DNA of 64,000 nucleotides, taken from the NCBI GenBank assembly GCA_965263355.1, contig CBDHHL010000032.1, forward strand, positions 32,001-96,000, written 5' to 3'. The notes beneath the pieces were generated by a model that saw only the letters and a list, made by a program, of their open reading frames with translations, had not been told where the DNA came from and ran no database searches. The DNA is from Leptolyngbyaceae cyanobacterium (lineage in GTDB: Bacteria; Cyanobacteriota; Cyanobacteriia; Phormidesmidales; Phormidesmidaceae). The number at the start of each line of letters is the position of its first letter. Positions within the stretch are counted from its first letter, which is position 1. The translations under genes and the position numbers were made by a program. Shown piece after piece: positions 17,208 to 36,568 of the stretch.

Positions 17208-18167
17208 GTGATGAAACGGCGAAGATTCTTTCAATATACAGGGTTAGGCGGTTTAAGCCTTGTGCTGGCAACCCGAAACGGTGCATTCGCTTCAGCGCTT
17301 TCTAACCCCATAGATTCCCAAAAACTAGGGTTAGAAACATTTTCTTTTCAGGTCACTACGGTTGATAAAACAGGAAAAACGCAGTATCCACATACCCATA
17401 CTGCAAAGTATTTCCCAGAGTCGCTCAATCATGTTGAACGACTAGATATGGTCGAGATCACACCGGGTAAATTTTTGATGGGCTCCACTCGATCTGAAGC
17501 CTACGCTAAGGGGAGTGAATTTCCTCGCCATCGTGTGAGCCTGTCGTCTTTTTTCTTGAGTAAATATCCCATTACCCAGGCGCAGTGGGCTGCTGTTGCC
17601 GCATTGCCCAAGGTGAATCGAGACTTATCCCTTGATCCTTCCCACTTTCAAGGTGGTGCTCGTCCCGTAGAAAGTGTTTCCTGGTTGGAAGCAACTGAGT
17701 TTTGCGATCGCTTAAGCAAGCATACTGGTCGTCAGTACCAGCTTCCCAGTGAGGCTCAGTGGGAATATGCCTGTCGTGCTGGCAGCAAGACTCCTTTTAG
17801 TACAGGAGATACAATAATCAGTCAGCTGGCTGATTATCGCGCCAATGTCACTTACAAGGCTGAATCTCCTGGAGACTATCGACAAGCAACCATGCCGGTC
17901 GGCAGCTTTTCTGCCAATGGATTTGGATTACATGATATGCATGGGAATGTCTGGGAATGGTGTGCCGATGGCTGGCATCGCAATTATCGCAGTGCTGCAA
18001 CCAATGGCAGGGCACGTAGACAGGTGTCAGGTAAGCTAGCCCAGCTAAGAACAATTCGTGGTGGTAGCTGGTTAGATTCCCCTGACAAAGTGCGTTCTGC
18101 CAGTCGGTCTGGTTATGCTGAGACAGCCTTGAACCGTACGATTGGCTTTCGCGTGATGATGGCATAG
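17208..18167 (+). CDS. Tat-exported FGE-sulfatase (SUMF1-like) domain protein
   Basis: KRRRFFQ twin-arginine signal; [43 protein letters not shown]. Confidence 0.9.
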
Positions 18168-18178
18168 GGAGAAGGCGC

Positions 18179-19162
18179 ATGGTATTGATTCAAAAAGTCC
18201 CCGTTACTGTATTAACTGGCTATCTGGGGGCTGGCAAAACCACATTACTCAATCGGATTCTCACAGAAGAGCATAATCAACGGGTTGCCGTTATTGTCAA
18301 TGAATTTGGCGAAGTTGGTATTGACCATCAGTTAGTGATGGATGCCGACGAAGAAATTTTTGAAATGAATAATGGCTGCATTTGTTGTACGGTGCGGGGA
18401 GATTTAATTCGGATTATTAATGATCTGATGACCCGGCGAGATCGGTTTGATCATTTGGTGATTGAAACCACTGGGTTAGCCGATCCGGCTCCGGTTATTC
18501 AATCCTTCTTTGTGGACGAGGTAATGCTGCGTCAGACCCAGCTGGATGCGGTGGTGACTGTGGTGGACGCCAAGCACATTTGGGCTCATTGGGACAGTAG
18601 TGAGGCTCAAGAACAGATTGCCTTTGCCGATGTGATTTTGCTTAACAAAACTGATTTGGTGTCTGCTGAGATTTTGGAGGCGTTAATGCAGAAGGTAAGG
18701 GGGATGAATGCGATCGCAAAAATCCACACCACCCAAAACTGTGACATTGACCTCAGTCTTTTGTTGGGAGTTCAAGCCTTTGACCTCAAAAATGCCCTGA
18801 GTATTGATCCTACCTTTTTAGACGAAGATGCCCATGAGCATGACAATTCTGTCTTTTCTATAGCGATTAAAAATGCAGAAGCCATTGATATTGATGAGCT
18901 AAATCGCTGGCTCTATCGGCTGGTACAGGCAAAAGGCCCCGATATCTTTCGCATGAAAGGGATTTTGAATGTGGCTAATGCTGAACGACGGTTTGTATTT
19001 CAAGGTGTACACATGACCTTAGATGGTCGGCCTGGTAAACCATGGCGACCAGGGGAGACTCGTCAAAATGAGCTGGTTTTTATTGGTCGCAATTTAGATG
19101 AGGCAGAGCTTCGAACTGGATTTGAGAATTGTTTTGCAAAAGCCTATGCCCATTCAATGTGA
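18179..19162 (+). CDS. COG0523/CobW-P47K family metallochaperone GTPase
   Basis: [26 protein letters not shown], CobW_C domain. Confidence 0.93.
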
Positions 19163-19281
19163 GGCTGACCCACCCCGGAGCCCCTCCCAGGAGGGGCTAG
19201 GGTATCGGTTCTTGCGTTAAGTATTGCATTTTACTAAATCTTTTTTCGACTTTTTCATCCTACTGAGAACAAGACAAACCT

Positions 19282-20028
19282 ATGAAACTACAACATGCCC
19301 TTGGCGGGCTGCAAGGATTAGACACCATTACCCCAGAAATAGAGGTATTTGTTGAGCCTTGGGAAAAGCGAATCTTTGGCATTCATACGGCGATGATGGC
19401 CCTTAGTAACCATCTTGATACAGCCTTACCGGGCTATGCCATTGATGAGGTGCCTACCACCTTTAAGAGCTTTTGGACCTGGGGCCATTTGCGCATGGGA
19501 GCAGAGGGAATGCATCCCTTTGAGTACTTCCGATTACGGTATTACGAGAAATGGCTGGGGGGTATTTCAGGCTTCTTTGTTAGCGAAGGTTACATTACCC
19601 AGGAAGAGCTAGATGCGCGCACCGCTGAGTATTTAGAGGACAGCGAAGCCGCAGCAGCCCCTTTGCCCAGTGGAGGCGACGCAGCCATTGATGATCAGGT
19701 GGTGAAATACTTGAGAGAAGGGGATTCTCCCATGCGTCCCTTGGTAGCTCCACCCAAATTTAGTTTGGGTGATCAGGTCAAGATCAAGATTGTCTCTCCT
19801 GGTGCCCATAGCCGCTTGCCTGGTAATTTGCAAGGCCGCGTAGCCACAGTGGTCAAGGTGTATGAAGGGGCGTTTACCTACTTCTTTCCCACCGCCGATG
19901 GCATTGGTGTTCCCATGCCGGTTTATAGTCTGGCTTTTCAAGTAGAAGACCTGTGGGATGAATCGTTGACTGAGCCGAATACGGTTTACTACAACGACAT
20001 TTTTGAAGTGTACATAGAAGCCGCGTAA
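19282..20028 (+). CDS. nthB: Nitrile hydratase beta subunit (divergent N-terminus)
   Basis: F.EPWEKR, LR..AE.M, YYEKW, HSRLP, VYSLAF...LW, IFE.YI. Confidence 0.88.
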   Translation: MKLQHALGGLQGLDTITPEIEVFVEPWEKRIFGIHTAMMALSNHLDTALPGYAIDEVPTTFKSFWTWGHLRMGAEGMHPFEYFRLRYYEKWLGGISGFFVSEGYITQEELDARTAEYLEDSEAAAAPLPSGGDAAIDDQVVKYLREGDSPMRPLVAPPKFSLGDQVKIKIVSPGAHSRLPGNLQGRVATVVKVYEGAFTYFFPTADGIGVPMPVYSLAFQVEDLWDESLTEPNTVYYNDIFEVYIEAA

Positions 20029-20052
20029 ACAAGGTGATTGAAGGAGTCTATT

Positions 20053-20676
20053 ATGCCAAGTAATTACCCAGGATTTAGATACGGTGCTGATCGAGAAACC
20101 TTTAGTGCTGCTAAAGTCAAAGCCCTAGAGTCTCTTCTAATCGAAAAAGGAATTATCACCGGGAATACGGTAGATACGATTCTCAGTTATTTTGAAACTG
20201 AGATGGGTCCCTTTAATGGCGCTAAAGTGGTGGCAAAAGCATGGGTTGATCCTGATTTTAAGAAGCTGTTGCTAGAAGACTGTAATGCGGCCTGTGAAGC
20301 CATGGACTTTCCTGAAGGAATGTCGGGGGCAGAGGGGGAACACATGCGCATTGTGGAGAATACGCCCGAGGTGCATAACGTAATCGTGTGTACCCTATGT
20401 TCTTGTTATCCCTGGCCTACATTAGGCTTACCCCCCTACTGGTTTAAGGATCCTACGTTTAGAGCAAGAGTCGTTCGAGAACCTCGCGTTGTTTTGTCTG
20501 AATTTGGCGTAGAGTTAGATGACTCTGTAAAAGTTCTCGTGTGGGATAGCAGTGCTCAGATTCGCTGGTGGGTGTTGCCTATGCGTCCTCCTGGCACAGA
20601 AGCCATGAGTGAGACAGAGCTAGCGAGCTTACTAACACCTGAAGCCATGATGGGCGTTGCTACCGTCTCAGTTTAA
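20053..20676 (+). CDS. nthA: Cobalt-type nitrile hydratase alpha subunit
   Basis: GAKVVAKAWVDP.FK, VCTLCSCYPW (Thr/Tyr indicates Co-type), R.R.VREPR. Confidence 0.95.
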   Translation: MPSNYPGFRYGADRETFSAAKVKALESLLIEKGIITGNTVDTILSYFETEMGPFNGAKVVAKAWVDPDFKKLLLEDCNAACEAMDFPEGMSGAEGEHMRIVENTPEVHNVIVCTLCSCYPWPTLGLPPYWFKDPTFRARVVREPRVVLSEFGVELDDSVKVLVWDSSAQIRWWVLPMRPPGTEAMSETELASLLTPEAMMGVATVSV

Positions 20677-20801
20677 ATGCTAACCCACCCCGTTGCCCCT
20701 CCCAGGAGGGGATGAAGTCTCGGTCTTTGCATTTGAGCACTGCATTAGATTCTCGACTCTTATGTAGCCCAAATGTATTCATTTCCCTCAGGTTCCTTGA
20801 T

Positions 20802-21167
20802 ATGTTTACACAATTCGAACATTTTGCGGCGACTAGCTTAATGGGTTCGCCTGAAGAAGCACCACCCCGGAGCAATGGTCATCTCCAGTTTGATCGTGAC
20901 TGGGAAAAGATGGCCTTTGGTGTGGCCATTGCCCTCTCAAAGCAGGGTTATTATGAGTGGGAAGAATTTCGTCAAACATTGATTGCAACGATTGGTGAGT
21001 GGGAAGCTACCCACGATCTAGACGATCCAGAATGGGATTATTACCAATGTTGGTTAACTGCCCTAGAGAAATTGGTCGTTGCCTCAGGTGTACTCAAAGC
21101 AGGTGAATTGGAATCACAACTATCTCAGTTGTTGAACTGCAAAGCAACGACTGAGATGAAATGCTGA
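20802..21167 (+). CDS. Nitrile hydratase accessory/activator protein (beta-like, P14K/NhlE type)
   Basis: PPRSNG.L.F..DWE..AFG.A, WEEFRQ.LI, YYQCWL.ALE. Confidence 0.88.
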   Translation: MFTQFEHFAATSLMGSPEEAPPRSNGHLQFDRDWEKMAFGVAIALSKQGYYEWEEFRQTLIATIGEWEATHDLDDPEWDYYQCWLTALEKLVVASGVLKAGELESQLSQLLNCKATTEMKC

Positions 21168-21336
21168 TTATTTGACCTTATACCCGTGGACTACCATGAA
21201 ATAGCGATTTTTGATGCTAATTCAACTATTACAGTGAATTACATCAGGCTCGATTAGTTGCCCGTAGTGTTAGTGTCGTATTTCTTTCTTCAGCAGGTTA
21301 AGAGTAATCTCTTCAACAGTTTTCTATCCGTGCTCT

Positions 21337-21369
21337 AAATACCCTGATTTTAGTATCAGGGTATTTTTT
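21337..21369 (+). terminator. Intrinsic terminator of the nitrile hydratase operon
   Basis: Perfect 12-bp stem AAATACCCTGAT/ATCAGGGTATTT, 6-nt loop, T tail. Confidence 0.75.
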
Positions 21370-21390
21370 ATACCAATACTCCGGACAGAA

Positions 21391-21692
21391 TTAGGAGACT
21401 AGAACCCCATAGTCACAAAGACTCGAATAGTTGGGATGTGATTTAATCAAAGTCTCGTCTAAGTCTAAGTTGCGAATAAACCTGTCCATCAGATGTTGAT
21501 TGAGTTTGCGACGTTTGTAGGAGGCCATGGAAAAGACAAAGGGTTCCCACGGTCTCGCTGCTGATACTGTTCCCATTTGGCGATATTCAAAGCGGTTAGC
21601 GAGGCATTGAAATGGAAATCGAGTTTCTGTTCATCCCTGGCTTGGCAGTCCGTTAAGCCGGTGAACTGTTTTGCATCTCTAAAAATAAATTC
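21391..21692 (-). pseudogene. Transposase C-terminal fragment
   Basis: Manual translation EFIFRDAKQFTGLTDCQARDEQKLDFHFNASL..., then FSMASYKRR...YGVLVS* after a frameshift. Confidence 0.85.
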
Positions 21693-21866
21693 AATGTGCC
21701 AGCCATAACACCCCCATAAGAACGAAATCTACTTCGTGCCCAACGATTGGATTAACAGGCCTATTGCGATTAGTAAAGACGATCGCGAAAATGAAAACTC
21801 ATTCCCTGTTGTCAATAGAGGAAGAGCCTTCATGCCAAAGTGTCCTGAGCCCCCCCGTCAATTCGT

Positions 21867-22001
21867 GTGCAACCCAAGCACCTATGGCAAACACTGCCGG
21901 AGCCACAGCGGCAACGGCTAATGAGCATCCTCAGTCAGATGCTAGAGAGTCATCTGAGCGCCTCTGTGGCAAAGGAGGCGAGCAATGAGCCTGAAAACTG
22001 A
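21867..22001 (+). CDS. Small helical accessory protein overlapping the recombinase start (not in ORF track)
   Basis: GTG-start 44 aa VQPKHLWQTLPEPQRQRLMSILSQMLESHLSASVAKEASNEPEN*; amphipathic; true start may be ATG 21832 across a C7 run. Confidence 0.45.
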   Translation: MQPKHLWQTLPEPQRQRLMSILSQMLESHLSASVAKEASNEPEN

Positions 22002-24141
22002 ACTCAGCTGGGTTTCCGAAAAGCTTCAAGCGCATCACCTAGAGCGATTGGCTATCGTGTACGTACGCCAGTCCACCTTGCAACAAGTGCTAGACCATCA
22101 AGAATCGACGCGAATTCAGTACAGCTTGGTAGATCGTGCCCAAGCGCTGGGCTGGCAACCAGGCCGCATTCTGACGATAGATGAAGACTTGGGTAAGTCG
22201 GGTAGCAGCGCCGAAGGCCGTTTAGGCTTTCAGCGTCTGGTCACTGAAGTCGGTCTCAACCATGTGGGCCTGATATTAGGTGTAGAAATGTCCCGTCTGG
22301 CTCGCTGCTCTAAAGATTGGCATCAATTGCTGGAAATCTGTGCACTGTTCGGTACGCTAATAGCAGACCTCGATGGCATTTATGACCCCAGCGGGTATAA
22401 CGACCGCTTACTGTTGGGCTTAAAAGGCACCATGAGCGAAGCCGAACTCCATATCCTCAAACAGCGCATGGTTCAAGGGAAGCGCAACAAAGCCAAGCGA
22501 GGCGAACTAGGCTTCAGCGTCCCGATAGGCTATGTTCGTCGCCCCTCGGGAGAGATTCGCTTTGACCCAGACGAACAGGCCCAACAAGTGGTCAAGCTCA
22601 TCTTTCGTAAGTTTGAGGAGCTAGGTACGCTGAACGCGGTACTGCGCTATCTTGTTAGCAATCACATCCAAGTCGGTGTCAGGGTTCTATCGGGTCTTAA
22701 CAAAGGAGATTTAGAGTGGCGCAGGCCGAATCGGCCCACCTTACAGAATCTGCTGAGAAGCCCAGTCTATGCAGGTGCTTACGCTTATGGCCGCAAGCAG
22801 ATGGATGCGAGACGAAAAAAGGTTGAACACCCTCATGGCGGCTTAGTCGTGAAACCAATGGACGAGTGGCTCGTGTTGATTAAAGACCATCATCCTGCTT
22901 ACATTTCCTGGGCGCAATATGAACAACATCTGGCCCAACTCAAATCGAATCGAGCCAGAGCTGATGAATGTGGCCATGCCCGCTCAGGCGCAGCTTTGTT
23001 ATCAGGGCTGCTGACCTGCGGTCGCTGTGGCGCTCGCATGACGGTTCGCTACCATCGAGGGCCAGCCTCTCATTGCTATGTCTGCAACCGTGAGATGGCA
23101 GACTATGGTGGAGAACTTTGTCAGCAGTTGGCAGGGGTGTGTTTAGATGAATCTGTCACCGAACAAGTTCTACGAGCATTAAAACCAGCGGCATTGGAGC
23201 TATCGTTAACGGCTGCAACCCACATCGAACAAGACCGTGCCGAATTAGACAAGTTATGGCATCAGCGATTAGAACGTGCCCGTTTTGAGTCAGAGCGTGC
23301 TGGTCGGCATTATCATCTTATAGAGCCCGAAAATCGTCTCGTTGCTAGGCAACTAGCTCAGGAATGGGAGCATGCCTTACAAGCAGAGCAACAGCTCAAA
23401 GAAGAGTATAAGAGATTCTCTCATGAACAACCTAGGCAGCTCACAGATGAAGAAAAGAAACAGATTCGTCAACTCTCAGAATGCCTGCCTAACTTGTGGT
23501 TTGCTGAAACAACGACCCATGCACAGCGAAAAGAAATTGTTCGTCAAATAATTCAGAAGATTGTTGTAAATATTGAAGGTGAAAGTGAACAAGTTCAGGT
23601 TAGTATTGAGTGGAGTGGTGGTTTTATTGGAAAAGCGAGTGTCATTCGCCCCGTGGCCAAATGGACTCAGCTAAGCAACTACTCACAACTTTGTGAGCGC
23701 CTTAGACAAATGGCCGAAGCACAGTTAAGCACTGATGAAATGATTGCGCGACTCCACCAAGAAGGCTTTCATCCACCGAAGCGTCGCAAAACGTTCAACC
23801 GAGAGATTTTGCGGTCATTAATGCGGCGACTCGGACTCGGTACTCGCCGTAGCCCAAAATCTAGAAAACCCTTGGCTACGCATGAGTGGTGGTTGCCTGA
23901 TTTAGCGCTGGCTTTAGAGATGCCGGAGGTAACCCTTTATAATTGGGTGCAACGAGGCTGGGTCAATGGACGACAACTGCCTGAACCACCTAAACACTGG
24001 GTGATCTGGGCGGATGAAGCCGAGCTAGGACGACTCCGTGCCCATCGAGCACGCCCTGTCGGTGACGTGCGACGACAGCTGTGGCAGGGAGAAGTGCTTG
24101 ACATCACTGTTCCGCCTACAATACCCCAAACCAATGAGTGA
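21985..24141 (+). CDS. Large serine recombinase (resolvase, recombinase, Zn-ribbon/coiled-coil, C-terminal HTH)
   Basis: IVYVRQST catalytic Ser, DEDLGKSGS, SRLAR, PIGY, LLSGLLTCGRCG...YVC...C, C-terminal LA..LEMPEVTLYNWV.RG; aaggagg RBS. Confidence 0.95.
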   Translation: MSLKTELSWVSEKLQAHHLERLAIVYVRQSTLQQVLDHQESTRIQYSLVDRAQALGWQPGRILTIDEDLGKSGSSAEGRLGFQRLVTEVGLNHVGLILGVEMSRLARCSKDWHQLLEICALFGTLIADLDGIYDPSGYNDRLLLGLKGTMSEAELHILKQRMVQGKRNKAKRGELGFSVPIGYVRRPSGEIRFDPDEQAQQVVKLIFRKFEELGTLNAVLRYLVSNHIQVGVRVLSGLNKGDLEWRRPNRPTLQNLLRSPVYAGAYAYGRKQMDARRKKVEHPHGGLVVKPMDEWLVLIKDHHPAYISWAQYEQHLAQLKSNRARADECGHARSGAALLSGLLTCGRCGARMTVRYHRGPASHCYVCNREMADYGGELCQQLAGVCLDESVTEQVLRALKPAALELSLTAATHIEQDRAELDKLWHQRLERARFESERAGRHYHLIEPENRLVARQLAQEWEHALQAEQQLKEEYKRFSHEQPRQLTDEEKKQIRQLSECLPNLWFAETTTHAQRKEIVRQIIQKIVVNIEGESEQVQVSIEWSGGFIGKASVIRPVAKWTQLSNYSQLCERLRQMAEAQLSTDEMIARLHQEGFHPPKRRKTFNREILRSLMRRLGLGTRRSPKSRKPLATHEWWLPDLALALEMPEVTLYNWVQRGWVNGRQLPEPPKHWVIWADEAELGRLRAHRARPVGDVRRQLWQGEVLDITVPPTIPQTNE

Positions 24142-24253
24142 CAACTATTTGAATCGTCTGTAGGAGAAGATATATGCTCAAAAAACAGCCTCTGGAAAAC
24201 CTACCTCGGCAGAATCAACTAAATGCCTATGGGGGTAATGAGGCTGGCACATC

Positions 24254-25166
24254 TCGATTTGGAAGCGCGCTCGGTACGCCTCGACTAGTTGCATCGGGTC
24301 GAGGTCAATATCGGTGGAGAATAGCAATGCATAGCATAGCCGTTCGGGATGCTTGCGATTGAGCAGATACACCACTCGAATCTTGTGCTTGAGGTAAACG
24401 GACCAGACCACAGCTGTGTAGAGTTCGGTTTCGGGGTCGACCTCACCGAGTGCTGCCAGCGAGTGAGGTCAGTCAAATCAACCTTACCGTCATATTTACG
24501 GCGCGCGCCACGAGGCTTTTGCGGACCGTCATAGAGATAGTTCAAGTTGGCATCGCAACGGAGCTTACCAATCGTGTCTAGCCCCAACTCAACCACACCA
24601 TTCACCCACTTTTGCTTGCTGTAGAAGCCATCCCCCACCAAGTATCGAACGGCTGCTGGGAAGGTATCTCGGGTAGCCTGCAAGTGGTCTAGATAGTCAT
24701 CAACCCGTGTGTCCGGTCTGTGTCCACTTCATCGACGGGCTCAAGTGACGGTGGGGTCTGTTGCACCGATAGCGTGTAGCCAATGAGTTGTTCGACGTCT
24801 ACCACCGCGATCATCGAGATCTCTAACCCCCGTTCGGTCCGACTGGCTTTGCCATTGTAGAAACGGTCTACGCCGTAGGTGGCTTTCCCACTTTTGGGCA
24901 CAAACGACGCATCCACCACCCCCACCTGGAAATGGGTTGGCACAATGGCGGCCTCAATCACGACTTGAGTGAAGCTCATGAATTCATAAGGCTGCTCAAA
25001 GTGACGACGATAGGTCCGCTCCGACAGGTCGCTATAACGACTCAGATTGGTGAAGTTTACCTTGCCACACATCACATAGATGGTCGTAAACAGGGTGATT
25101 AAAAACTGGCGACGAGGTTTGCTAAATGGCCCACTTTACGCAGTAGACCCGGTATCATGCATAGCA
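24254..25166 (-). pseudogene. DDE transposase N-terminal part, with several frameshifts/stop
   Basis: VNFTNLSRYS, VDASF.PKSGK.TYG, GLEIS, VGDGFYSK, KLRCDANL, LFSTD, YRARFQIE spread over several frames. Confidence 0.88.
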
Positions 25167-25467
25167 TAGCTATTCAGGTTGGTTTGTCTGTTAACAAAAC
25201 CTTAGAGCCTGGATAGCTTTTCTGTCTATTTCTCTCGCTTTTCTGTCCGGACTATTGTTATACAAGATACATATCTCTGCGTCGTCTTCAATACATTCGT
25301 TGCTCTAATAAAGGCCTGACATTTCTTAAGCTTGTATTGCTTGTCGGGTAAAATCATTAACTGCTCTGGTATACTAATCTCAAGAAAGAAATAATGTTTT
25401 TAGTGATTGAGATATCTGAAATGCTGCATTATCTTATGATTATGTAAATAATGCTACTTTCTTCTCA

Positions 25468-26535
25468 TTGTTTTGTCCCTTCTTCCCGATGGTAAAGCTA
25501 GTCGTTACTCAAATGCACAAAATTCTTATTTCTCATTCCATTGATCCATACACTATTCATGATCTAGGGTTACGCCAAATAGACTATCCGGCAAATGAGA
25601 AATTTACTGGTGTAAATGAGCAGACATTTTATGCCTCTAACTCTTTTGAAGAGTTGCTTTACATGCCGAGCATAGCTGCAAAACAACGTCCTCAGGAGGA
25701 GTGCGATCCAACCCTCGAGGTGCTTCGACGCGTACTGATAACATTTCAGCCTGATGTTCTGATTGTGGGTAATAATGCTGTGCCTGGTAGGGCAATTCGT
25801 GCCTGGCGACAGGCTGTTGGTCCTAGCCGTGATTTACTTATTATTCGGCGAGGCGTTGATAAACGTGCAATTGATTGTAAAGTAGCGGCTGAGGAATCGG
25901 TGAGAGTTGGTAATTTGCCAGGGATCAATTCTCCTTTTGTTGCTAAATTTCAAGTCGAATGGTTGAAGCTCAGTGAAGATCGAGCCAACAGTAAGATAGC
26001 GATCATTGGCGTTGGCAACATTGGTAAAAATATTGCCTTAAGGGCTTTAGATTTTGGTCTTGATGTTCATCTTTTTAGTCCATCTTTACAGGATATAGAA
26101 AAGCGAGATCGTACATTAAGAGAACGCTCAATTCCACCTGATCTTGTAACCTGTGCAACTTCGTTGGAAGCAGCGTTTGAGAATGCTAAGTACATTGCTA
26201 TTTCTGTGCCCTGGCTTGATAGTTATGGTAATCCTCATAGGGGACTTTTGACTCGAGATTATGTTGAAAACGTTCAAAATAACGCCAAGATTAGCTCTGT
26301 CTCCCCCCCGCGAATGTTTTCCGATCAAGCTCTGGCTTGGATGAATCGACAAGTTAAGCAGGGCCATCTTGCTGTTCGAATTGATTCAGCCAAGCGTCTT
26401 GTTAAAGAAATCAGTTCTGATTACTCCCACCTCGAATTAGGTCATGATGTAGCATTTGCTGATAGTGCTTGTCAGCAAGCTCTTGATAGGGCTATGTTGA
26501 ACCAAGCTAGAGATTTTGCTGCGGTGCCAGTATAA
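25468..26535 (+). CDS. Divergent D-isomer-specific 2-hydroxyacid dehydrogenase-like NAD(P)-binding protein; start uncertain
   Basis: RRGVD..AID...V.NLPGINS..VA and Rossmann IAIIGVGNIG. Confidence 0.6.
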   Translation: MFCPFFPMVKLVVTQMHKILISHSIDPYTIHDLGLRQIDYPANEKFTGVNEQTFYASNSFEELLYMPSIAAKQRPQEECDPTLEVLRRVLITFQPDVLIVGNNAVPGRAIRAWRQAVGPSRDLLIIRRGVDKRAIDCKVAAEESVRVGNLPGINSPFVAKFQVEWLKLSEDRANSKIAIIGVGNIGKNIALRALDFGLDVHLFSPSLQDIEKRDRTLRERSIPPDLVTCATSLEAAFENAKYIAISVPWLDSYGNPHRGLLTRDYVENVQNNAKISSVSPPRMFSDQALAWMNRQVKQGHLAVRIDSAKRLVKEISSDYSHLELGHDVAFADSACQQALDRAMLNQARDFAAVPV

Positions 26536-26579
26536 TTTCCTTGAAATTGGAAAACCTGGGCACCTCGTTTTAGGGGTGC

Positions 26580-27482
26580 TTGATTTTCAATTTTTTTATG
26601 GCTTACAATTGTACTGATGCACACGGAGTCATTGAAGACACCATGCTACTACTACTGTTGATACTGTCAAGCATTTTTGGATGGTTTGTCAGTATGATTG
26701 TTGGTGGGGGAAGCTCTCTTATTCTGATGCCAGCTATAGGTATTTTATTGGGGGCTTCAGCTATACCCCCAGTGATTACTATTGGCGGTATTTTTGGCAA
26801 TGCAGAGCGCACTTACTCCTATTGGAGCAACATAAACAGGCAAATTCTATGGTGGGAACTTCCTGGTGCTTTAGTTGGGGCAATCTTAGGGTCTTTTGTT
26901 CTTAGTACGCTAGATCTAGAATGGGTAGTTGTCATTGTTGCAGTTTTTTTAATAGGTTCTGCCCTCAGTTCCTTCTTACAGAAAAGTGAGCAATCTTTTA
27001 CAGTAAAGCTTTGGTATTTTCTGGTAGGCGGTTTTGTCTATGCTTTCCTGTCAGGGTTAATTGGTAGCATGGGGCCCATCATTGCTCCTTTTTATATCAA
27101 TTATGGTCTTAAAAAAGAGGAATTATTAGGAACTCAAGCATTTGTTCGTTGTTTTGTTCATTCTGTCAAACTTGTGGCTTATTTTGCCTTTGGCACCTTA
27201 CAACTACCCTATGTTGGTTATGGTATTGCAATTGGCCTCGCTTCTTTCCCAGGTAATTTTCTTGGGGGATTGGTGTTGGAGAAAATTAGTGAAAAATTAT
27301 TTAGGCAGCTTGTATTTACCTTCGTGATGTTCAGTGGCTTTTGGCTCCTATGGGAACATCACGACTTGTTTGCTTTTAATGTTCTACAGGGTAAGAGTTT
27401 ACCATTCTGGTTCTGGTTTTTTCAGGATGAACAAAGTGTAGGTGTTTTGCACTTAATATCTAATCTACCGTCCGCTTGCTAA
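26580..27482 (+). CDS. TauE/SafE (sulfite exporter) family membrane protein; start likely near 26643
   Basis: GGGSSLILMP, SGLIGSMGP repeats, about 8 TM helices. Confidence 0.85.
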   Translation: MIFNFFMAYNCTDAHGVIEDTMLLLLLILSSIFGWFVSMIVGGGSSLILMPAIGILLGASAIPPVITIGGIFGNAERTYSYWSNINRQILWWELPGALVGAILGSFVLSTLDLEWVVVIVAVFLIGSALSSFLQKSEQSFTVKLWYFLVGGFVYAFLSGLIGSMGPIIAPFYINYGLKKEELLGTQAFVRCFVHSVKLVAYFAFGTLQLPYVGYGIAIGLASFPGNFLGGLVLEKISEKLFRQLVFTFVMFSGFWLLWEHHDLFAFNVLQGKSLPFWFWFFQDEQSVGVLHLISNLPSAC

Positions 27483-27582
27483 AAATAAAGTTCCCAGATT
27501 GAAAAAGAGAGAAGGTAAGGGGATATTTTATTTACCTGCGGGCCCCTTAAAACAGTAGGATCTGTCAAAATTCTTTGGAGTG

Positions 27583-28284
27583 CTAATTTGCAAATAACCT
27601 TTGTGTCAGGGCAGAATGAGTCATTTGGGCAATATCAATAAATGGAGTGCAGGACCACATATCGTCAAGGTCCATAGAAATCGGTTTTTGGGCAATGGTT
27701 TCAAGCTGAGGGACCATCTCTTTTAGCAAAATTTGAGCATTGATATGGCCAATAAGACCCAATCTTAAGGCAGCTCCACATAATCCAGTGAGAAAACTAT
27801 GCAGAAAAGCAAAGACCGTATTGTGTTCGTCCAATCCTATAGATTGTCCCACCACCCCAAAAATTATCGGATGTAAACCATGCATTTTATCTGTCTGAAT
27901 GCATGTGTGAATTGCATCCAGTTTGGGGTTGCTCCATGTAGAGCGGGCAACCATTAAGAGGGCTCGACCGCTTTTGCATTGGCTTTCTCGATTTGTTTGT
28001 AACAGAGTTTGGGCCAACAATCGTGCATCGATCGCTTGAATTTTTTGATCATCATTGCAGGTACTGGCCGCATGGGACTGGCGCAGTGCGACTAAATCCA
28101 TTGAACCGATTTTATTATGGAGAATTAACTCTAAATAATTGCGTAAATCTTGGGTAGAACGAATTTGTTGAGATTGGATCAGGCTTTCTAAACCGTGGGA
28201 TAAGGTAAAACTACCGCTTGGGAAAAATGAATCAGATAGTTGCATTAGAGACCATCGCTGGTCTGAAAGCAGAGAAGTATTCAT
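27583..28284 (-). CDS. ureF: Urease accessory protein UreF
   Basis: LSDSFFPSGSFTLSHGLE; C-terminal H....RLFAN. Confidence 0.92.
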   Translation of the reverse strand: MNTSLLSDQRWSLMQLSDSFFPSGSFTLSHGLESLIQSQQIRSTQDLRNYLELILHNKIGSMDLVALRQSHAASTCNDDQKIQAIDARLLAQTLLQTNRESQCKSGRALLMVARSTWSNPKLDAIHTCIQTDKMHGLHPIIFGVVGQSIGLDEHNTVFAFLHSFLTGLCGAALRLGLIGHINAQILLKEMVPQLETIAQKPISMDLDDMWSCTPFIDIAQMTHSALTQRLFAN

Positions 28285-28333
28285 AGGGAGAATTTCCACA
28301 AAATATTGCTTAGGAGCATTGTATGCAATGCCC

Positions 28334-28852
28334 CTAAGCGTGTTGGTGATATGTAAACGTTAGCGTTTGGTCGTGAGATCGCATTTCATATCCAATCTTC
28401 AACCCTGCAATGTCGAAGGACCTAATAACAGATTCGAGGGTGGCAACATTTTCACTGATTTGGATATAGATCTTATCGTCAGTGACCAAAATAGGATAAT
28501 GATGATTGCCCAAGGTATGACCAAGATGGATCAGTTTAAAAACATCAACCGAATGGTGGGCATCAAAACTTAAGGTCATCAACGATTGAGACTTGAAATG
28601 GATTAATAGGAATCTATCATTCTCAAGTTGAAACACATCCCCATCAGTTAATTGCTTATCTCGTTGTTTCAACAGTCCAATGGCATTACCAGCATTAGTT
28701 TTGGTATAAATTCGGCTTTTCTTTTGATCAGTCTGGGTCAACTCAACCTCCATTAATCGATGGTTGGACCTTGCTCTCTCCAAGTTATGTTGTAGTTTCG
28801 GCATAGCAAAATAGTTGCCGAGATAATTTTGAATGCAGTCAACGCTTATCAT
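28334..28852 (-). CDS. ureE: Urease accessory protein UreE
   Basis: KSR....T..G, L.DGD, LGH.LGNHH; short His tail. Confidence 0.85.
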   Translation of the reverse strand: MISVDCIQNYLGNYFAMPKLQHNLERARSNHRLMEVELTQTDQKKSRIYTKTNAGNAIGLLKQRDKQLTDGDVFQLENDRFLLIHFKSQSLMTLSFDAHHSVDVFKLIHLGHTLGNHHYPILVTDDKIYIQISENVATLESVIRSFDIAGLKIGYEMRSHDQTLTFTYHQHA

Positions 28853-28863
28853 CTCTCTATTGC

Positions 28864-29811
28864 TTATTTAGGAATATAAGGTAAATTTGGCTCGTTGCTC
28901 ATGGTTCTTACACAAGATAAAATTTCAAAAATATAGGATTGAATATGTTCAACACGATTGCCCATGATTTTAATCAACAACCCATTACAATTGGGTAATG
29001 GAGACAAACCTGTTAACAAATGAGCCAATTGTAATCGAGGATGTATTGCTAATTCGTGACTTAATTTGTCTAAATCAAAATTTGGTAAAACAGTAAAAAC
29101 ATTGGCGATCAAGGGATATTTAGCGAAGAATAAACTGTCTTTGAAAGGATTAGATTGCCCCATCAGCCTGATGGCATCACCAAATAATAAGTTGCCATCA
29201 GGCGATAAAACCTGAAGACGATTTTGATATTCTCGAAATTGATAATATTCTGATCGGGCCAAGCGACCAGGTACAATAATTTCGCTAAGGAAAAGGTTGC
29301 TGGTAGGTTCGAGTGTAATAGTAGTGCTCTGGTAAAGCTGAGCATCTGCGTACAGCATCAAAGGTTCAGGAACAAACTCTAAGCTGGCTCCAGTCCCAAC
29401 AGTAATCTGCCACGATAGCTGGGCGCGGGCGGCAGCAGCATCAGTGACGGGCATTTTATGGACTTTGGTGGCTGCTTGATCCGTCAGATAGAGTTGGGCA
29501 TTAGGGTCTACTGTCAGGCCAAGGGTTAGGCGATCGCCCCCAAATAGGCCAGGGGCTGAATTCATCAGATAAAGGTAGGCACGCCTATTGTTGTCCTGAT
29601 CTAAACGAAAGGTGTGGGATAAACGAAAGGGATAGGCCATGTATTGTTGGGCTACAAAGGTTTGATTGTTGCGATCGCACCCCATCCGAGCATAAAAATC
29701 AAAGTCCTTAACCGCAATATTGTTGCTAATTCGACTGGTTGTAAAGTTTGTAATCCCCCTACTAAGTTTCTGGTGGTCCGCAGGAGATATCGGGAACAAC
29801 GTCATGCCCAT
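28864..29811 (-). CDS. ureD: Urease accessory protein UreD/UreH
   Basis: YP...., NSAPGLFGGD, TDQAATKVH, LEFVPEP, GRLAR.E. Confidence 0.9.
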   Translation of the reverse strand: MGMTLFPISPADHQKLSRGITNFTTSRISNNIAVKDFDFYARMGCDRNNQTFVAQQYMAYPFRLSHTFRLDQDNNRRAYLYLMNSAPGLFGGDRLTLGLTVDPNAQLYLTDQAATKVHKMPVTDAAAARAQLSWQITVGTGASLEFVPEPLMLYADAQLYQSTTITLEPTSNLFLSEIIVPGRLARSEYYQFREYQNRLQVLSPDGNLLFGDAIRLMGQSNPFKDSLFFAKYPLIANVFTVLPNFDLDKLSHELAIHPRLQLAHLLTGLSPLPNCNGLLIKIMGNRVEHIQSYIFEILSCVRTMSNEPNLPYIPK

Positions 29812-30458
29812 GGTTGTACTCCTGATAGGACAACCGCATCAGGAGAGACCGGTTGAAAAAGAACCGTTTCCTCAATAAATTTGACTACCTCGTCCAGCCC
29901 GTCTCCTGTTTTGCAGTTGGTGTAGGCAATTGCTTTTTGCCCTCGCCGTTCAGCTGCATCTTTACGAATGATGTCTAAGTTGGCTCCCACATAGGGGGCG
30001 ATATCAATTTTGTTAATAATCGCCAAATCCGCCTGCATAAATCCTGGCCCATTTTTACGGGGAATATCGTCTCCGGCACCGACATCAATCACAAACAGAT
30101 AGGAGTCCACCAGGTCATAGCTAAAGGTAGAGGCCAAGTTATCGCCACCGCTTTCGATAAAGACAATATCTAAACCAGGAAACTGTTGTTCCAGACCTTG
30201 AACGGCCAGCAGGTTCATGGTGGGGTCTTCCCGAATGGCGGTATGGGGACAACTGCCGGTTTCCACACCAATGATACGTTCTGTCGGTAGAAATCCCTTT
30301 TGTTTAATGCGTTTTGCATCTTCTTGAGTGAGCAGATCATTAGTGACAACGGCCACCTCAATGCCCCGTGCCATCAAACGCGGCACCAAACATTCTAATA
30401 AGGCTGTTTTACCACTGCCGACGGGACCGCCAATGCCTATGCGTGCTGCTTGTTTCAT
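29802..30458 (-). CDS. ureG: Urease accessory GTPase UreG
   Basis: GGPVGSGKT, ETGSCPH, ESGGDNL, NKID. Confidence 0.96.
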   Translation of the reverse strand: MKQAARIGIGGPVGSGKTALLECLVPRLMARGIEVAVVTNDLLTQEDAKRIKQKGFLPTERIIGVETGSCPHTAIREDPTMNLLAVQGLEQQFPGLDIVFIESGGDNLASTFSYDLVDSYLFVIDVGAGDDIPRKNGPGFMQADLAIINKIDIAPYVGANLDIIRKDAAERRGQKAIAYTNCKTGDGLDEVVKFIEETVLFQPVSPDAVVLSGVQPWA

Positions 30459-30469
30459 GGGATTCTCCT

Positions 30470-32176
30470 TTACCGAAACATGTAAAGCCGCCCAAGGGGA
30501 ACTTCTGTAACCGGATCACAGGTGGCTAACTCCCCGTCTACTCTCACCTGGAAGGTGTCAGGATCCACCTCTATTTCAGGACAGGCGTCATTGTGTACCA
30601 TATCTGCCTTAGAGACCGATCGCGTATCCTGCACCGGTAACAATTCTTTTTTCAACCCCAGCCGATCTGGCAATCCCTTCTCCAATGCTGCTTTGGTAAC
30701 AAATCCCACCGATGTAGCCTGGGGTGCGGTGCCAAAGCTACTCCACTGGGGACGATACAGAATGGGTTCACAGGTCATCAGAGACGCATTGGACTCTCCC
30801 ATGGCGGCCCAGGCAATAAAGCCCCCCTTAAATACCACCTCCGGCTTGATGCCAAAGAAACCAGGCTTCCATAGAACAATGTCCGCGAGCTTTCCTGGTT
30901 CGATGGAGCCAACGTAGGCAGAAATTCCCCCGGTTTTGGCTACGTTGATTGTATATTTGGCCAGATAGCGCAAAATACGCTGATTGTCGTTGCGATCGCT
31001 ATCCTCCGGCAATGCCCCCCGCTGGTCCTTCATTTTCGAGGCCAGTTGCCAGGTGCGACAAATCACCTCACCAATGCGGCCCATGCCCTGGCTGTCCGAG
31101 CCCAACATGCTGATCGCTCCCATATCATGGAGAACATCTTCCGCCGCAATGGTTTCCGCCCGAATGCGAGACTCGGCAAAGGCGACATCTTCCGGCACCT
31201 TAGGATTCAGGTGGTGACACACCATCACCATATCCAGATGTTCATCAAAGGTATTGACCGTATAGGGATTGGTAGGATTAGTAGACGACGGCAAACAATG
31301 GTTATAGGCGGCCACTTTAATGATATCTGGGGCATGGCCCCCACCCGCTCCCTCTGTGTGGTACATGTGGATGGTACGGCCTGCGATCGCAGCCATCGTA
31401 TCTTCCACATACCCCGATTCATTCAAGGTATCCGTGTGGATTTGCACCTGAAAATCGTAGCTATCGGCCACCGACAAACAGGTATCAATTAAGGCGGGCA
31501 TGGCTCCCCAGTCTTCGTGAATTTTGAGACCGTAAGCCCCATTTTCCACCTGTTCAACCAAACTTTCTGGCAAGCTGGAACTGCCTTTGCCTAAAAAGCC
31601 AAAGTTAATGGGGAATGCCTCCGCTGCCTGTAGCATAATTCCCAGATTATGCACTCCGCTAGTGCAAATACCCACGGTGACAGGCCCTAAGCCGCCCCCC
31701 AACATTGTTGTAATGCCGCTGGATAACGCTTCGGCACACAGACCGGCACTGTCAAAGTGGACGTGGCAGTCCAGGCCCCCCGGCGTAGCAATCAACCCTT
31801 CCCCAGCCCGGACATCGGTATTGGCACCAATGAGTAAATTGGGCAATACCCCATCCATGATGCCGGGATTTCCTGCTTTGCCGATGCCAACAATTTTGCC
31901 ATCCTTAATGCCGATATCCGTTTTCACGACACCCTGAACCGGGTCAATCAGCACCACATTGGTAATCACCATATCCAGGGCACCTGCCGCCGCTGTGGCC
32001 TCAGCTGCCATTCCCAAGCCATCCCGCAGGGTTTTACCCCCACCAAACACACATTCGTCGCCATAGACGGTGGTATCCCGTTCGACCTCCACTATCAGAG
32101 AGGTGTCTCCCAGGCGGATGCGATCGCCCACCGTCGGACCAAATAGCTCGGCGTACCGTTCACGACTAATTTCCAT
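30470..32176 (-). CDS. ureC: Urease subunit alpha (divergent active-site loops)
   Basis: [37 protein letters not shown] nickel ligands all present. Confidence 0.95.
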
Positions 32177-32187
32177 AGGTAGTGCCC

Positions 32188-32574
32188 TTACTTGCTTTCA
32201 AATCCAGCAGTATGTAATCGGTCTAATGCTTCTTGTTTACAGGTGGCGTCATCTAGTGCTCCATCCACCAGGCTGTTGAGCCCCCGCACCTGGCGAGTGC
32301 CCCCTAAGGCCACCAGCGTCACCGATTTGGTATCGCCTGGTTCAAACCGCACCGCCGTACCTGCAGGGATATCTAAACGAAAGCCAAAGGTCTCTGCTCG
32401 ATCAAACTGAAGCGCTCGATTTACTTCAAAAAAGTGGTAGTGAGACCCCACCTGGATTGGTCGATCACCTCCATTGGCTACGGTAATAGTCTTGGTTTCC
32501 CGATCGGCATTCAGCGACAGCATCCCTTCAGCACACATAATTCCACCGGGCGGTAAAGCAACATGATTAGACAT
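32188..32574 (-). CDS. ureB: Urease subunit beta
   Basis: [33 protein letters not shown]. Confidence 0.96.
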
Positions 32575-32914
32575 TGGCAGTTTCCCCTTGGATGGCATCT
32601 GTCTGAACCATTGGACGAATGGGATTATGGATACTGACTAATTTAGTCCCATCGAGAAAATGGGCTTCCACCTGAATCAACGGAATCAATTCTGCCACAT
32701 TGGGCAAAACATCCTCAGTGGTCAACAACATCGCCCCTTCTGACATCAGTTCTGCCACCGATTTATCCTCACGTGCCCCTTCAATAATGTAGTCAGTAAT
32801 ATAGGCAATCGCCTCCGGCACATTTAGCTTGATGCCACGCTCTTTGCGCCTTCGAGCAATTTCTGCAGCGGTAAATATGGTGAGTCGTTCAAACTCTTTT
32901 GGAGTGAGATACAT
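32567..32914 (-). CDS. ureA: Urease subunit gamma
   Basis: MYLTPKE.ERL, LN.PEA, QVEA.F.DGTKLV.IH.PI. Confidence 0.96.
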
Positions 32915-33000: not shown

Positions 33001-33014
33001 GTGATTATTGTTAC
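33001..33014. promoter_or_regulatory. Candidate variant NtcA box upstream of ureA
   Basis: GTG-ATTATTGT-TAC (one mismatch to GTA-N8-TAC), 86 bp before the ureA ATG. Confidence 0.3.
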
Positions 33015-33549
33015 TGTTTTTCCAACGAAGACCAGTAAAACACGAAAATTTTGACATAAATACGCTTTTGGGAATAGCAGTATTGAGATCATCAGAATAA
33101 GGAGTGAAATTATACGAGTATCATCACTTTCTTCATGATTTTTTGGGTTCTGCCTTATGTGAAAAATACTAATTGCATAATTGCACTCAGTGTATGCACT
33201 AACGCAATAATAGAAGTATTAATACAGGTAATCTGTTAAGCTGCGTAAATCTGTAATAAATGTAACCGTTTAGCCTGGAAATATTAATAACCTTGTTTTA
33301 TAAGAATTACATGGCTTCATTAGATGGATATCCACTCAAGCAGAGAAATTCTGGTTAATTAGGAATCTAAAATCCAGGAGCCAGAATGGAGAAGGGATAG
33401 GTGACTAGTCTCCTGAAAGATTACTAGATCGCAGCTTCTAAAATCTCTTGCCGCTTAGCCGCCTTATCTACAATCTTAGGCATCAGGTATAGGGATAGAG
33501 TCCGCTTTATACTTTACACCCTAACCTGAAAATTTATCAATTTACCACC

Positions 33550-35411: not shown

Positions 35412-35586
35412 GACGGTGAGTTGGCTTCGGCAAGCTCAGTCGTCAGGGAATGGTTGATTAAGGCATGGGAGGAGTCCCACAATTAGGATGGTTAACATAA
35501 GTTAAGTGAAAAAATTGAGTAGTATTTGTATGTTACTCATTGGCGGCTGATATACTTGCCCTCAGGTTTTGATTTCAGCGTTTGCC

Positions 35587-36357
35587 ATGAATCCACTCCA
35601 GGATGCGTTTATTTCCTATGGTCGTGCCGACAGTAGACAATTCGCCCAGGAGCTTAGCAAACGCCTCAAAAGGTTAGGCTACACTGTCTGGTTTGATTGT
35701 AACGATATTCCCCTGGGGATAGATTACCAGAAGCAAATCGATGACGGTATTGAAAAAGCGGATGATTGTTTGTTTCTGATTTCGCCCCATTCGGTTAACT
35801 CGGCCTATTGCGGTTTGGAAGTTGAGCTGGCGCTAAAGCACAATAAGCGGATTATCCCGCTGCTGCATGTGGAGGAGATTAGCTACGAAACCTGGCAGCA
35901 GCGAAATCCGGATGGCACAAAGGACTAATGGGAGGCATATAAGGCAGCGGGTAAGCATTGCCATTTTGATAATATGCACCCGGAAATTCGCAAGATCAAC
36001 TGGGTGTATTTTCGCGATGGCCTTGACGACTATAGGGACTCGTTTGAAGGGCTGCTGGGGCTACTGGGTCGAGAAAAGGACTATGTGCATCAGCATACGG
36101 TGCTGCTAAACGATGCTCTGGAGTGGGAGCGTAACCAGAAGCAAACGCGCTATTTGCTGCCTCGGGAAGACCGACAGCAGGCGGAGGCATGGCTGGCCAC
36201 TCGGTTTAAGGAGAGTCAGCCGCCGGTAGTGCCTACGGATTTGCGCTATGAGTACATTACCGAGAGCATTAAAAACGGCGATAACCTGATGACCCGGGTG
36301 TTTTTATCCCATGGGTCGGAAGATGCTGAGGTAACAGAGCAGGTGCGGCGGACGTTG
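35587..36357 (+). pseudogene. TIR-domain protein pseudogene (premature stop, truncated in second TIR)
   Basis: DAFISYGRADS...VWFD...SPHSVNS.YC..E; in-frame TAA at 35926-28; second TIR start VFLSHGSED then homology lost. Confidence 0.85.
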
Positions 36358-36568
36358 AACCTTTACTCAGAAAGATACTCATCGAATCACAAAAAAATAC
36401 ACGACCAAAATTGTTGCGCTAAATATTGTCTTAGTAACCGTTGCAACGATATCGTTATATCTTCACTATGGAGTATTTTTAGGACAATCTCGAACCCTGG
36501 AGTTTATAGAGTGTCAAAACTGCTTAAATAATCCAGGACTGGTTGAATTTTTCAGGATTATCATCCTA

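Follow-up and report, generated by a model that had tools for sequence, protein, structure and literature searches.

Urease is the textbook case of one enzyme for one substrate, and ureC is counted in ecology as a marker of urea use. Jack bean urease was reportedly studied with N-methylurea by Dixon in 1980, and this compound, for which methylxanthine breakdown is a natural source, is said to be a very poor substrate of that enzyme. In the urea-bound urease of Sporosarcina pasteurii, as described in the available portion of PMC7433671, the urea oxygen lies on Ni(1) with His222, the carbonyls of Ala170 and Ala366 hold the Ni(2)-bound nitrogen, the distal nitrogen is held by Gly280 and Ala366, and the C-beta of Ala366 is in packing contact with the Ni(2) water site. 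The original prediction for the DNA considered here had these two carbonyls bonding the urea amino groups, in agreement with this part of the source. Two further systems bear on the locus. The characterised DmgH produces urea and dimethylamine, and its authors credit a downstream urease with the use of the urea (accessible sections of PMC11399263). The amidase AmiE, as known from the Helicobacter pylori enzyme, covers acetamide and propionamide (accessible sections of PMC10781810). A literature search, whose wording probably missed some 'N-methylurea' papers and whose scope excluded most subscription papers, found no biochemical study of the urease clade described below, and the accessible parts of PMC10927577 and PMC7244745 contain nothing on it.

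The window, by which we mean the whole stretch of 64,000 nucleotides of cyanobacterial DNA analysed here, carries ureA-B-C-G-D-E-F contiguously on the minus strand from 32914 down to 27583, with all frames open. NCBIfam and Pfam profile matches bear out this order, which had been predicted, and the gamma and beta subunits as well as UreD, UreE, UreF and UreG are all present in the window, as in a nickel urease. The features of the cluster, including a candidate nitrogen-control site named from what we take to be the NtcA consensus (GTA-N8-CAC), are as follows.

33001..33014, minus strand: candidate NtcA site GTA-N8-CAC, 86 nt upstream of the ureA start
32567..32914, minus strand: ureA, urease gamma subunit, 115 aa (TIGR00193, 135.8 bits, cut-off 82.3)
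32188..32598, minus strand: ureB, urease beta subunit, 136 aa (TIGR00192, 148.8 bits, cut-off 90.3)
30470..32176, minus strand: ureC, catalytic subunit of the variant clade, 568 aa, stop-free (TIGR01792, 887.5 bits, cut-off 680)
31742..31765, minus strand: HVHFDSAG, UreC residues 138-145, with Asp142 in place of the canonical Ile
31655..31699, minus strand: shortened loop, UreC residues 160-174, three residues fewer, with Val168 aligned to S. pasteurii Ala170
31076..31099, minus strand: SDSQGMGR, UreC residues 360-367, with the nickel ligand Asp361 and with Gly364 aligned to S. pasteurii Ala366
29802..30458, minus strand: ureG, GTPase (TIGR00101, 259.7 bits, cut-off 204.2)
28864..29811, minus strand: ureD, real start possibly internal to the frame (PF01774, E 6e-46)
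28334..28852, minus strand: ureE, nickel chaperone (PF02814; NF009752 at E 3e-23, under its cut-off)
27583..28299, minus strand: ureF (PF01730, E 4e-34)

NtcA-like sites were also observed 60-76 nt upstream of ureA in seven relatives (L001, L003, L005-L007, L250, L251), against a background rate of 0.2 such sites per 400 nt. The candidate site would fit a role in nitrogen scavenging.

As predicted, all nickel ligands of UreC are intact (the His-x-His pair H138 and H140, K218 at the place of the carbamylated lysine of nickel ureases, H247, H273 and D361). They are identical in 79/79 variant and 33/33 canonical rows of a 122-row alignment, in which the variant was defined by Phe-Asp at residues 141-142 and 10 other divergent rows were excluded from the column count. 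The same identity throughout both groups was observed for the substrate-orienting residues H220, D222, G278 and R337, the flap Cys-His-His (C320, H321, H322) and M365. The three altered motifs and the shortening by three residues that the original prediction had reported were found at residues 138-145, 160-174 and 360-367, Asp142 lying two residues past the second Ni(2) histidine. The gap is visible against jack bean urease, pigeon pea urease and all 33 canonical rows, and the numbering offset to S. pasteurii is +1 before it (His140 = His139) and -2 after it (Lys218 = Lys220, Asp361 = Asp363), so that Val168 and Gly364 correspond to Ala170 and Ala366. Four canonical segments, HIHFIC, GTxATTC (with Ala170), TRP and SDSQA (with Ala366), are all altered in 79/79 variant rows relative to the 33/33 canonical ones, and 23 fixed columns separate the two groups, including Val168/Ala, Asn303/Arg and Gly364/Ala. 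Since the best 120 protein matches listed (79-100% identical, and cyanobacterial wherever a source is named) all carry SDSQGMGR, the short loop and H-V-H-F/Y-D, the changes are neither chance nor sequencing error.

Mapped by sequence onto what PMC7433671, in its available portion, describes for S. pasteurii, the changes cluster on the Ni(2) side, at positions around the Ni(2)-bound nitrogen, and the side of the leaving NH2 (His220, Asp222, Gly278 and the flap) is unchanged. The predicted UreC model has the urease alpha fold, its top 39 Foldseek matches all being ureases with TM values of 0.85-0.90 (about 0.89 to solved ureases). However, this AlphaFold2 model, built from a 31-row alignment, has pLDDT below 50 at residues 164-170 and 298-366 and thus carries no information on the shape of the pocket. 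Judged from its sequence, the protein is structurally a urease, and it is not an ordinary cyanobacterial UreC.

A UreC phylogeny had been proposed as a check on the idea of an altered pocket in a separate lineage. In a tree of 121 rows, supported by SH-aLRT only, a branch of 83 rows (SH-aLRT 97) stands apart from a branch of 35 rows with the canonical enzymes (SH-aLRT 99), and the cyanobacterial variants fall together (SH-aLRT 100). An AU test on 27 of the 121 rows rejected a tree that joined them to ordinary cyanobacterial UreC (lnL 256 lower, p-AU 4.4e-6). Tree, AU test and the 23 clade-specific columns together support that idea. The nearest relative of the window's UreC is a Leptothoe kymatousa protein (98% identical), and the clade spans cyanobacteria, Alpha-, Beta- and Gammaproteobacteria and Thermoleophilia among 80 loci retained from a genome scan that returned at least 542 related stretches and that was biased toward the clade by one search pattern holding HVHFD. 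Within these groups its presence is patchy: 21/150 genomes of the cyanobacterial order and 17/251 Hyphomicrobiales carry the gene, and a phylum-wide count gave 3/301 cyanobacterial genomes under a stringent threshold applied to a 144-aa fragment, which may be an undercount. The G+C content of ureC (0.535) is similar to that of the window's housekeeping genes, the accessory genes being AT-richer (0.39-0.43). A recent horizontal acquisition of the cluster was considered and rejected, being unsupported by the single cyanobacterial clade with its 98% Leptothoe match or by composition, and the suggestion of the original prediction that the cluster was 'acquired' is unsupported as regards a recent event. 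The gene appears to be an old paralogue that some lineages have kept and others have not, rather than a fresh import, and this patchiness leaves room for older loss or transfer.

Other short-loop urease paralogues with different pockets were seen at L141:4517-6439, L112, L111:4037-5755, L058:19903-21624, L149:4519-6609, L037:5664-7511 and L038:1106-2815. Pockets among these paralogues include HAHFIQ/SDAEG with the flap LCHSL, HVHFIG with SSHLL, HVHFVG with MAHNL and HVHQKS/SDSEG with VAHRL, as well as HVHFLA/SDSTG, HIHLLG/SDSMG and an archaeal HVHFNS; several are without the flap Cys or His. One genome (G042) has three divergent urease copies, with no canonical one found. In four cyanobacterial loci (L142, L145, L146 and L147, from G013-G015 and G020) the urease of canonical type belongs to a subtype on a long branch (GGGHS, ASTNP, HKDM), which in G013-G015 lies just 12-15 kb from the variant cluster.

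The ure block of the window and its nitrile hydratase block are collinear with a related locus, L008 (78-87% DNA identity), and about 6.4 kb between the two blocks (21200-27580) is absent from L008. This insert holds 2-hydroxyacid dehydrogenase-like and TauE/SafE genes and the following mobile elements.

21985-24141: large serine recombinase
24285-25075: DDE transposase (IS) fragments

Genes for amiE and an importer lie upstream in L008 and are missing from the window, in whose 64,000 nt amiE, the importer and gmaS were not found. A short frame, MPKIVDKAAKRQEILEAAI, at about 33410-33485 on the minus strand, ends in two stops; it resembles what we take to be the start of a TetR regulator and is likely a remnant at the place of amiE and the importer in relatives. 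The nitrile hydratase operon (17208-21167, plus strand) is of the cobalt type with a CTLCSC motif and comprises beta, alpha and accessory genes together with CobW/P47K-like and FGE-sulfatase-like genes. The organic-nitrogen island of L008 further holds a second nitrile-hydratase-like pair, a cyanase, FmdA, an isochorismatase-family gene and an amidase-family gene. A link of the variant urease to the nitrile hydratase operon was discarded, as the window and L008 were the sole cases of adjacency when the 80 loci and the window were compared; nitrile hydratase exceeded the cut-off in 24/50 genomes holding the variant, counted without a control group. Elsewhere in the window, a WD40 repeat array (49630-52010, minus strand, after a large NTPase gene) is split over several frames and a TIR-domain gene (35569-36531, plus strand) is in two pieces; these are frameshifted genes or assembly errors.

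Across the relatives, the commonest partners of the variant are AmiE (often encoded directly upstream of ureA), a Urt-like ABC importer, AmiC/AmiR and the formamidase FmdA, with a CbbQ/VWA pair and an alpha/beta hydrolase as further frequent neighbours. The latter, often located between amiE and ureA, is called acetyl-esterase-like on the assumption that 5e4y is an acetyl esterase. AmiE was present in 19/21 holders of the variant and 6/129 non-holders in the cyanobacterial order (Fisher p 6e-17), and in 13/17 and 9/234, respectively, in Hyphomicrobiales (p 6e-13), p values that are inflated by kinship and physical linkage; in G021, G586 and G631 amiE is unlinked to the variant cluster. Because AmiE covers acetamide and propionamide, and FmdA is encoded inside several variant clusters, these two substrates and formamide are already taken, and a role as plain acetamidase or formamidase was set aside. 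Moreover, the importers near the variant are annotated as urea transporters, and comparison with four solved urea binders indicates pockets of another type. In the solved proteins three pocket positions, which presumably contact the ligand, are occupied by Trp, Gln and Asn; the Asn of this pocket occurs in 0/61 binding proteins adjoining the variant (some of them AmiC sensors), most of which show AmiC's Cys-Tyr...Val, compared with a urea-type pocket in 4/20 canonical control loci. The gene context thus favours a niche in amides other than urea.

Our preferred reading, held tentatively and at a little under an even chance, is a broadened urease for N-methylurea, perhaps also for dimethylurea, that keeps its activity on urea. 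With an intact UreDEFG set and no change in the metal ligands, in the Cys-His-His of the flap or at His220, Asp222 and Gly278, the enzyme is expected to use di-nickel bridging-hydroxide chemistry. The changes on the Ni(2) side suggest a substrate of the form X-CO-NH2 whose larger X would sit at Ni(2), NH3 remaining the leaving group. N-methylurea would bind with its carbonyl oxygen at Ni1 and its NHCH3 at Ni2, NH3 would be released, and the N-methylcarbamate product would decay to methylamine and CO2. Being propionamide-sized, N-methylurea could enter through the amide-type ABC importer that would also feed AmiE, which in turn would handle plain amides. Methylamine would pass to the GmaS/N-methylglutamate pathway where present, and for this cyanobacterium the benefit would be ammonium under nitrogen limitation, even without GmaS. 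N-methylurea would account for the largest number of facts, matching the importer in size, falling outside the AmiE range, and yielding methylamine for GmaS as well as ammonium where GmaS is lacking. Speaking against this reading, Ala170 and Ala366 act via backbone carbonyls, and side-chain changes need not abolish these contacts. The window's own lack of amiE, importer and gmaS also counts against it.

Links between the variant and methylamine metabolism were observed in hosts that are unrelated to one another. An Acinetobacter plasmid carries gmaS-mgsABC-SBP-ureE-F-AB-C-G-D in one run, Shinella has mgs/mgd genes followed by amiCR-ure, and in the cyanobacterium G124 a gene that we call GmaS-like, taking 7cql to be GmaS, lies directly upstream of ureA. 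A DMFase-like large subunit is encoded near variant ure genes in six loci (L024, L025, L078, L079, L259, L265), in the last four of which the DMFase-like gene is followed by a Rieske-like gene, a short gene (Sel1 in L259 and L265) and the ure genes. Methylamine-related genes occurred within about 10 kb in 17/80 variant loci of at least 12 kb and in 0/20 canonical loci from holder genomes (p 0.02), the probes having been drawn from variant loci and 3/17 being self-hits. However, 63/80 variant loci have no methylamine gene nearby, and 7 of the 17 linked ones are DmgH loci, which speak for urea. At the genome level, GmaS-type genes were present in 11/17 holders and 55/234 non-holders in Hyphomicrobiales at an arbitrary E cut, a moderate link; no enrichment of the GmaS family was observed in the cyanobacterial order (16/21 holders, 92/129 non-holders, p 0.8), and co-occurrence with GmaS across genomes (44/50 holders) was dropped after the comparison with cyanobacterial non-holders had removed the signal. 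In the order to which the relative G008 belongs, 108/150 genomes of these filamentous cyanobacteria carry glutamine-synthetase-like genes of the GmaS family (TIGR03105), often two per genome. An Rfam scan of seven loci detected no guanidine riboswitch and no other regulator.

The alternative that survives best, unlikely but weighty, is an ordinary urea isoenzyme, that is, an old paralogue with a differently built pocket that sits in organic-nitrogen islands under separate regulation. Asp142 may then stand in for the lost loop contact, and a possible role is the clearing of urea that comes from DmgH, from allantoin breakdown or from a nitrile hydratase acting on cyanamide. The catalytic residues are all canonical, and plasmids of Aminobacter and Methylobacterium have allantoin/urate genes upstream. 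Furthermore, of 80 metagenome loci of DmgH-like genes (a pair scoring 601 bits to metformin hydrolase alpha) 19 reach a ureC, which is the variant in 19/19; urea is the obvious substrate at these loci, since it is what the characterised DmgH yields according to the sections cited above. Also, no canonical urease was detected in 14/49 holder assemblies (2 cyanobacterial, all 7 of the Thermoleophilia and 5 proteobacterial), DmgH-cluster genomes with incomplete assemblies among them, which leaves the variant as their sole or principal urease so far. Other divergent paralogues are carried by 4 of the 14, and urea carboxylase exceeded the cut-off in just 1/10 tested genomes of this kind, although the assemblies may be incomplete. 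On the other hand, the variant is retained alongside a canonical urease in 33/49 holder genomes, in which a further UreC with canonical motifs was verified (2/49 more have a second UreC match and are counted outside the 33). The 23 fixed changes, several of them around one substrate nitrogen, the binding-protein pockets (0/61 of urea type, as opposed to 4/20 at canonical loci) and the close association with AmiE in two phyla likewise argue against a mere isoenzyme. A more spacious site could accept urea as well, and N-methylurea as an added substrate is thereby reconciled with the DmgH and sole-urease evidence. As for the original prediction, its 'second cluster' holds in 18/21 cyanobacterial-clade relatives, and its possible non-urea substrate is favoured, indirectly, by the neighbourhood and partly opposed by the DmgH-like link, with urea as product, and by the genomes in which the variant is the only urease found.

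It is improbable that the variant acts as a nickel-dependent amidase or carbamate hydrolase on N-methylformamide, N-methylacetamide or methyl carbamate, compounds poorly handled by AmiE and FmdA, the acyl group of which would occupy the site of urea's Ni(2)-bound NH2. The AmiC-type importer with the AmiC/AmiR regulators, the DMFase-like plus Rieske operons and the acetyl-esterase-like hydrolase between amiE and ureA would suit such an enzyme, and the gmaS links suit N-methylamides equally well. Yet N-methylamides release a substituted amine, whereas the leaving-group side of the pocket is unchanged, and the DmgH link and sole-urease use are left unexplained. Moreover, G008, a cyanobacterial relative, carries the cluster but gave no GmaS-family match, so that an N-methylamide would be no easy source of nitrogen for it. 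Least probable is an amidine hydrolase that would convert acetamidine or formamidine to amide and NH3 in the step just before AmiE/FmdA and would hold its cationic substrate through Asp142: AmiE is indeed the strongest partner, often as the gene directly upstream, and the new Asp is invariant at the HxHxX position, presumably a substrate contact in other amidohydrolases, but the adjoining importer pocket is of the neutral-amide (AmiC-like) type, a source of free amidines is not evident in the clusters, the gmaS, DMFase and sole-urease cases are left unexplained, and a literature search on acetamidine, urease and amidase was empty.

Returning to N-methylurea, it is conceivable, with the chances leaning against it, that the variant ureases constitute a separate nickel enzyme family for N-methylated ureas, comprising thousands of urease-annotated genes, and that the other short-loop paralogues (HVHQKS, HAHFIQ, HVHFVG, HVHFLA) each have a substrate of their own. 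If so, nature would have turned the urease scaffold to another physiological substrate, and the enzyme would feed methylamine and ammonium into the carbon and nitrogen metabolism of cyanobacteria, Proteobacteria and Thermoleophilia, and a methylurea-tuned paralogue would fill a gap in microbial nitrogen and one-carbon recovery from methylated compounds. It would show how few changes re-aim a di-nickel site, and the clade would bias ureC surveys; its four sequence signatures make it easy to recognise.

Of the described systems nearest to the variant, one is the urease downstream of DmgH: after DmgH-like pairs the variant comes next in all 19 loci with a ureC, and the sections of Sinn et al. 2024 (PMC11399263) available here assume that the downstream urease hydrolyses urea. 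The Pseudomonas aeruginosa amiE/amiC/amiR system (AmiC PDB 1pea) recurs near the variant in relatives as AmiE (NF009802, 714.7 bits), AmiC-like pockets and AmiR/ANTAR, its components being partners of the variant urease and not homologues. The canonical nickel ureases (EC 3.5.1.5) of S. pasteurii (4ubp, 5a6t), Klebsiella aerogenes (1ejw, 2kau) and jack bean (3la4), together with ordinary cyanobacterial UreC, are about 58-63% identical to the variant and share with it the fold, the three-subunit layout, the nickel ligands, the flap and catalytic residues and the UreDEFG maturation set. The variant differs from them in Ile→Asp142, in Ala→Val168/Thr→Gly/Thr→Ile with the three-residue deletion, in Arg→Asn303, in Ala→Gly364 and in 18 further fixed columns, it forms a clade of its own, and its companions are an amidase and an amide-type importer in place of a urea-type UrtA.
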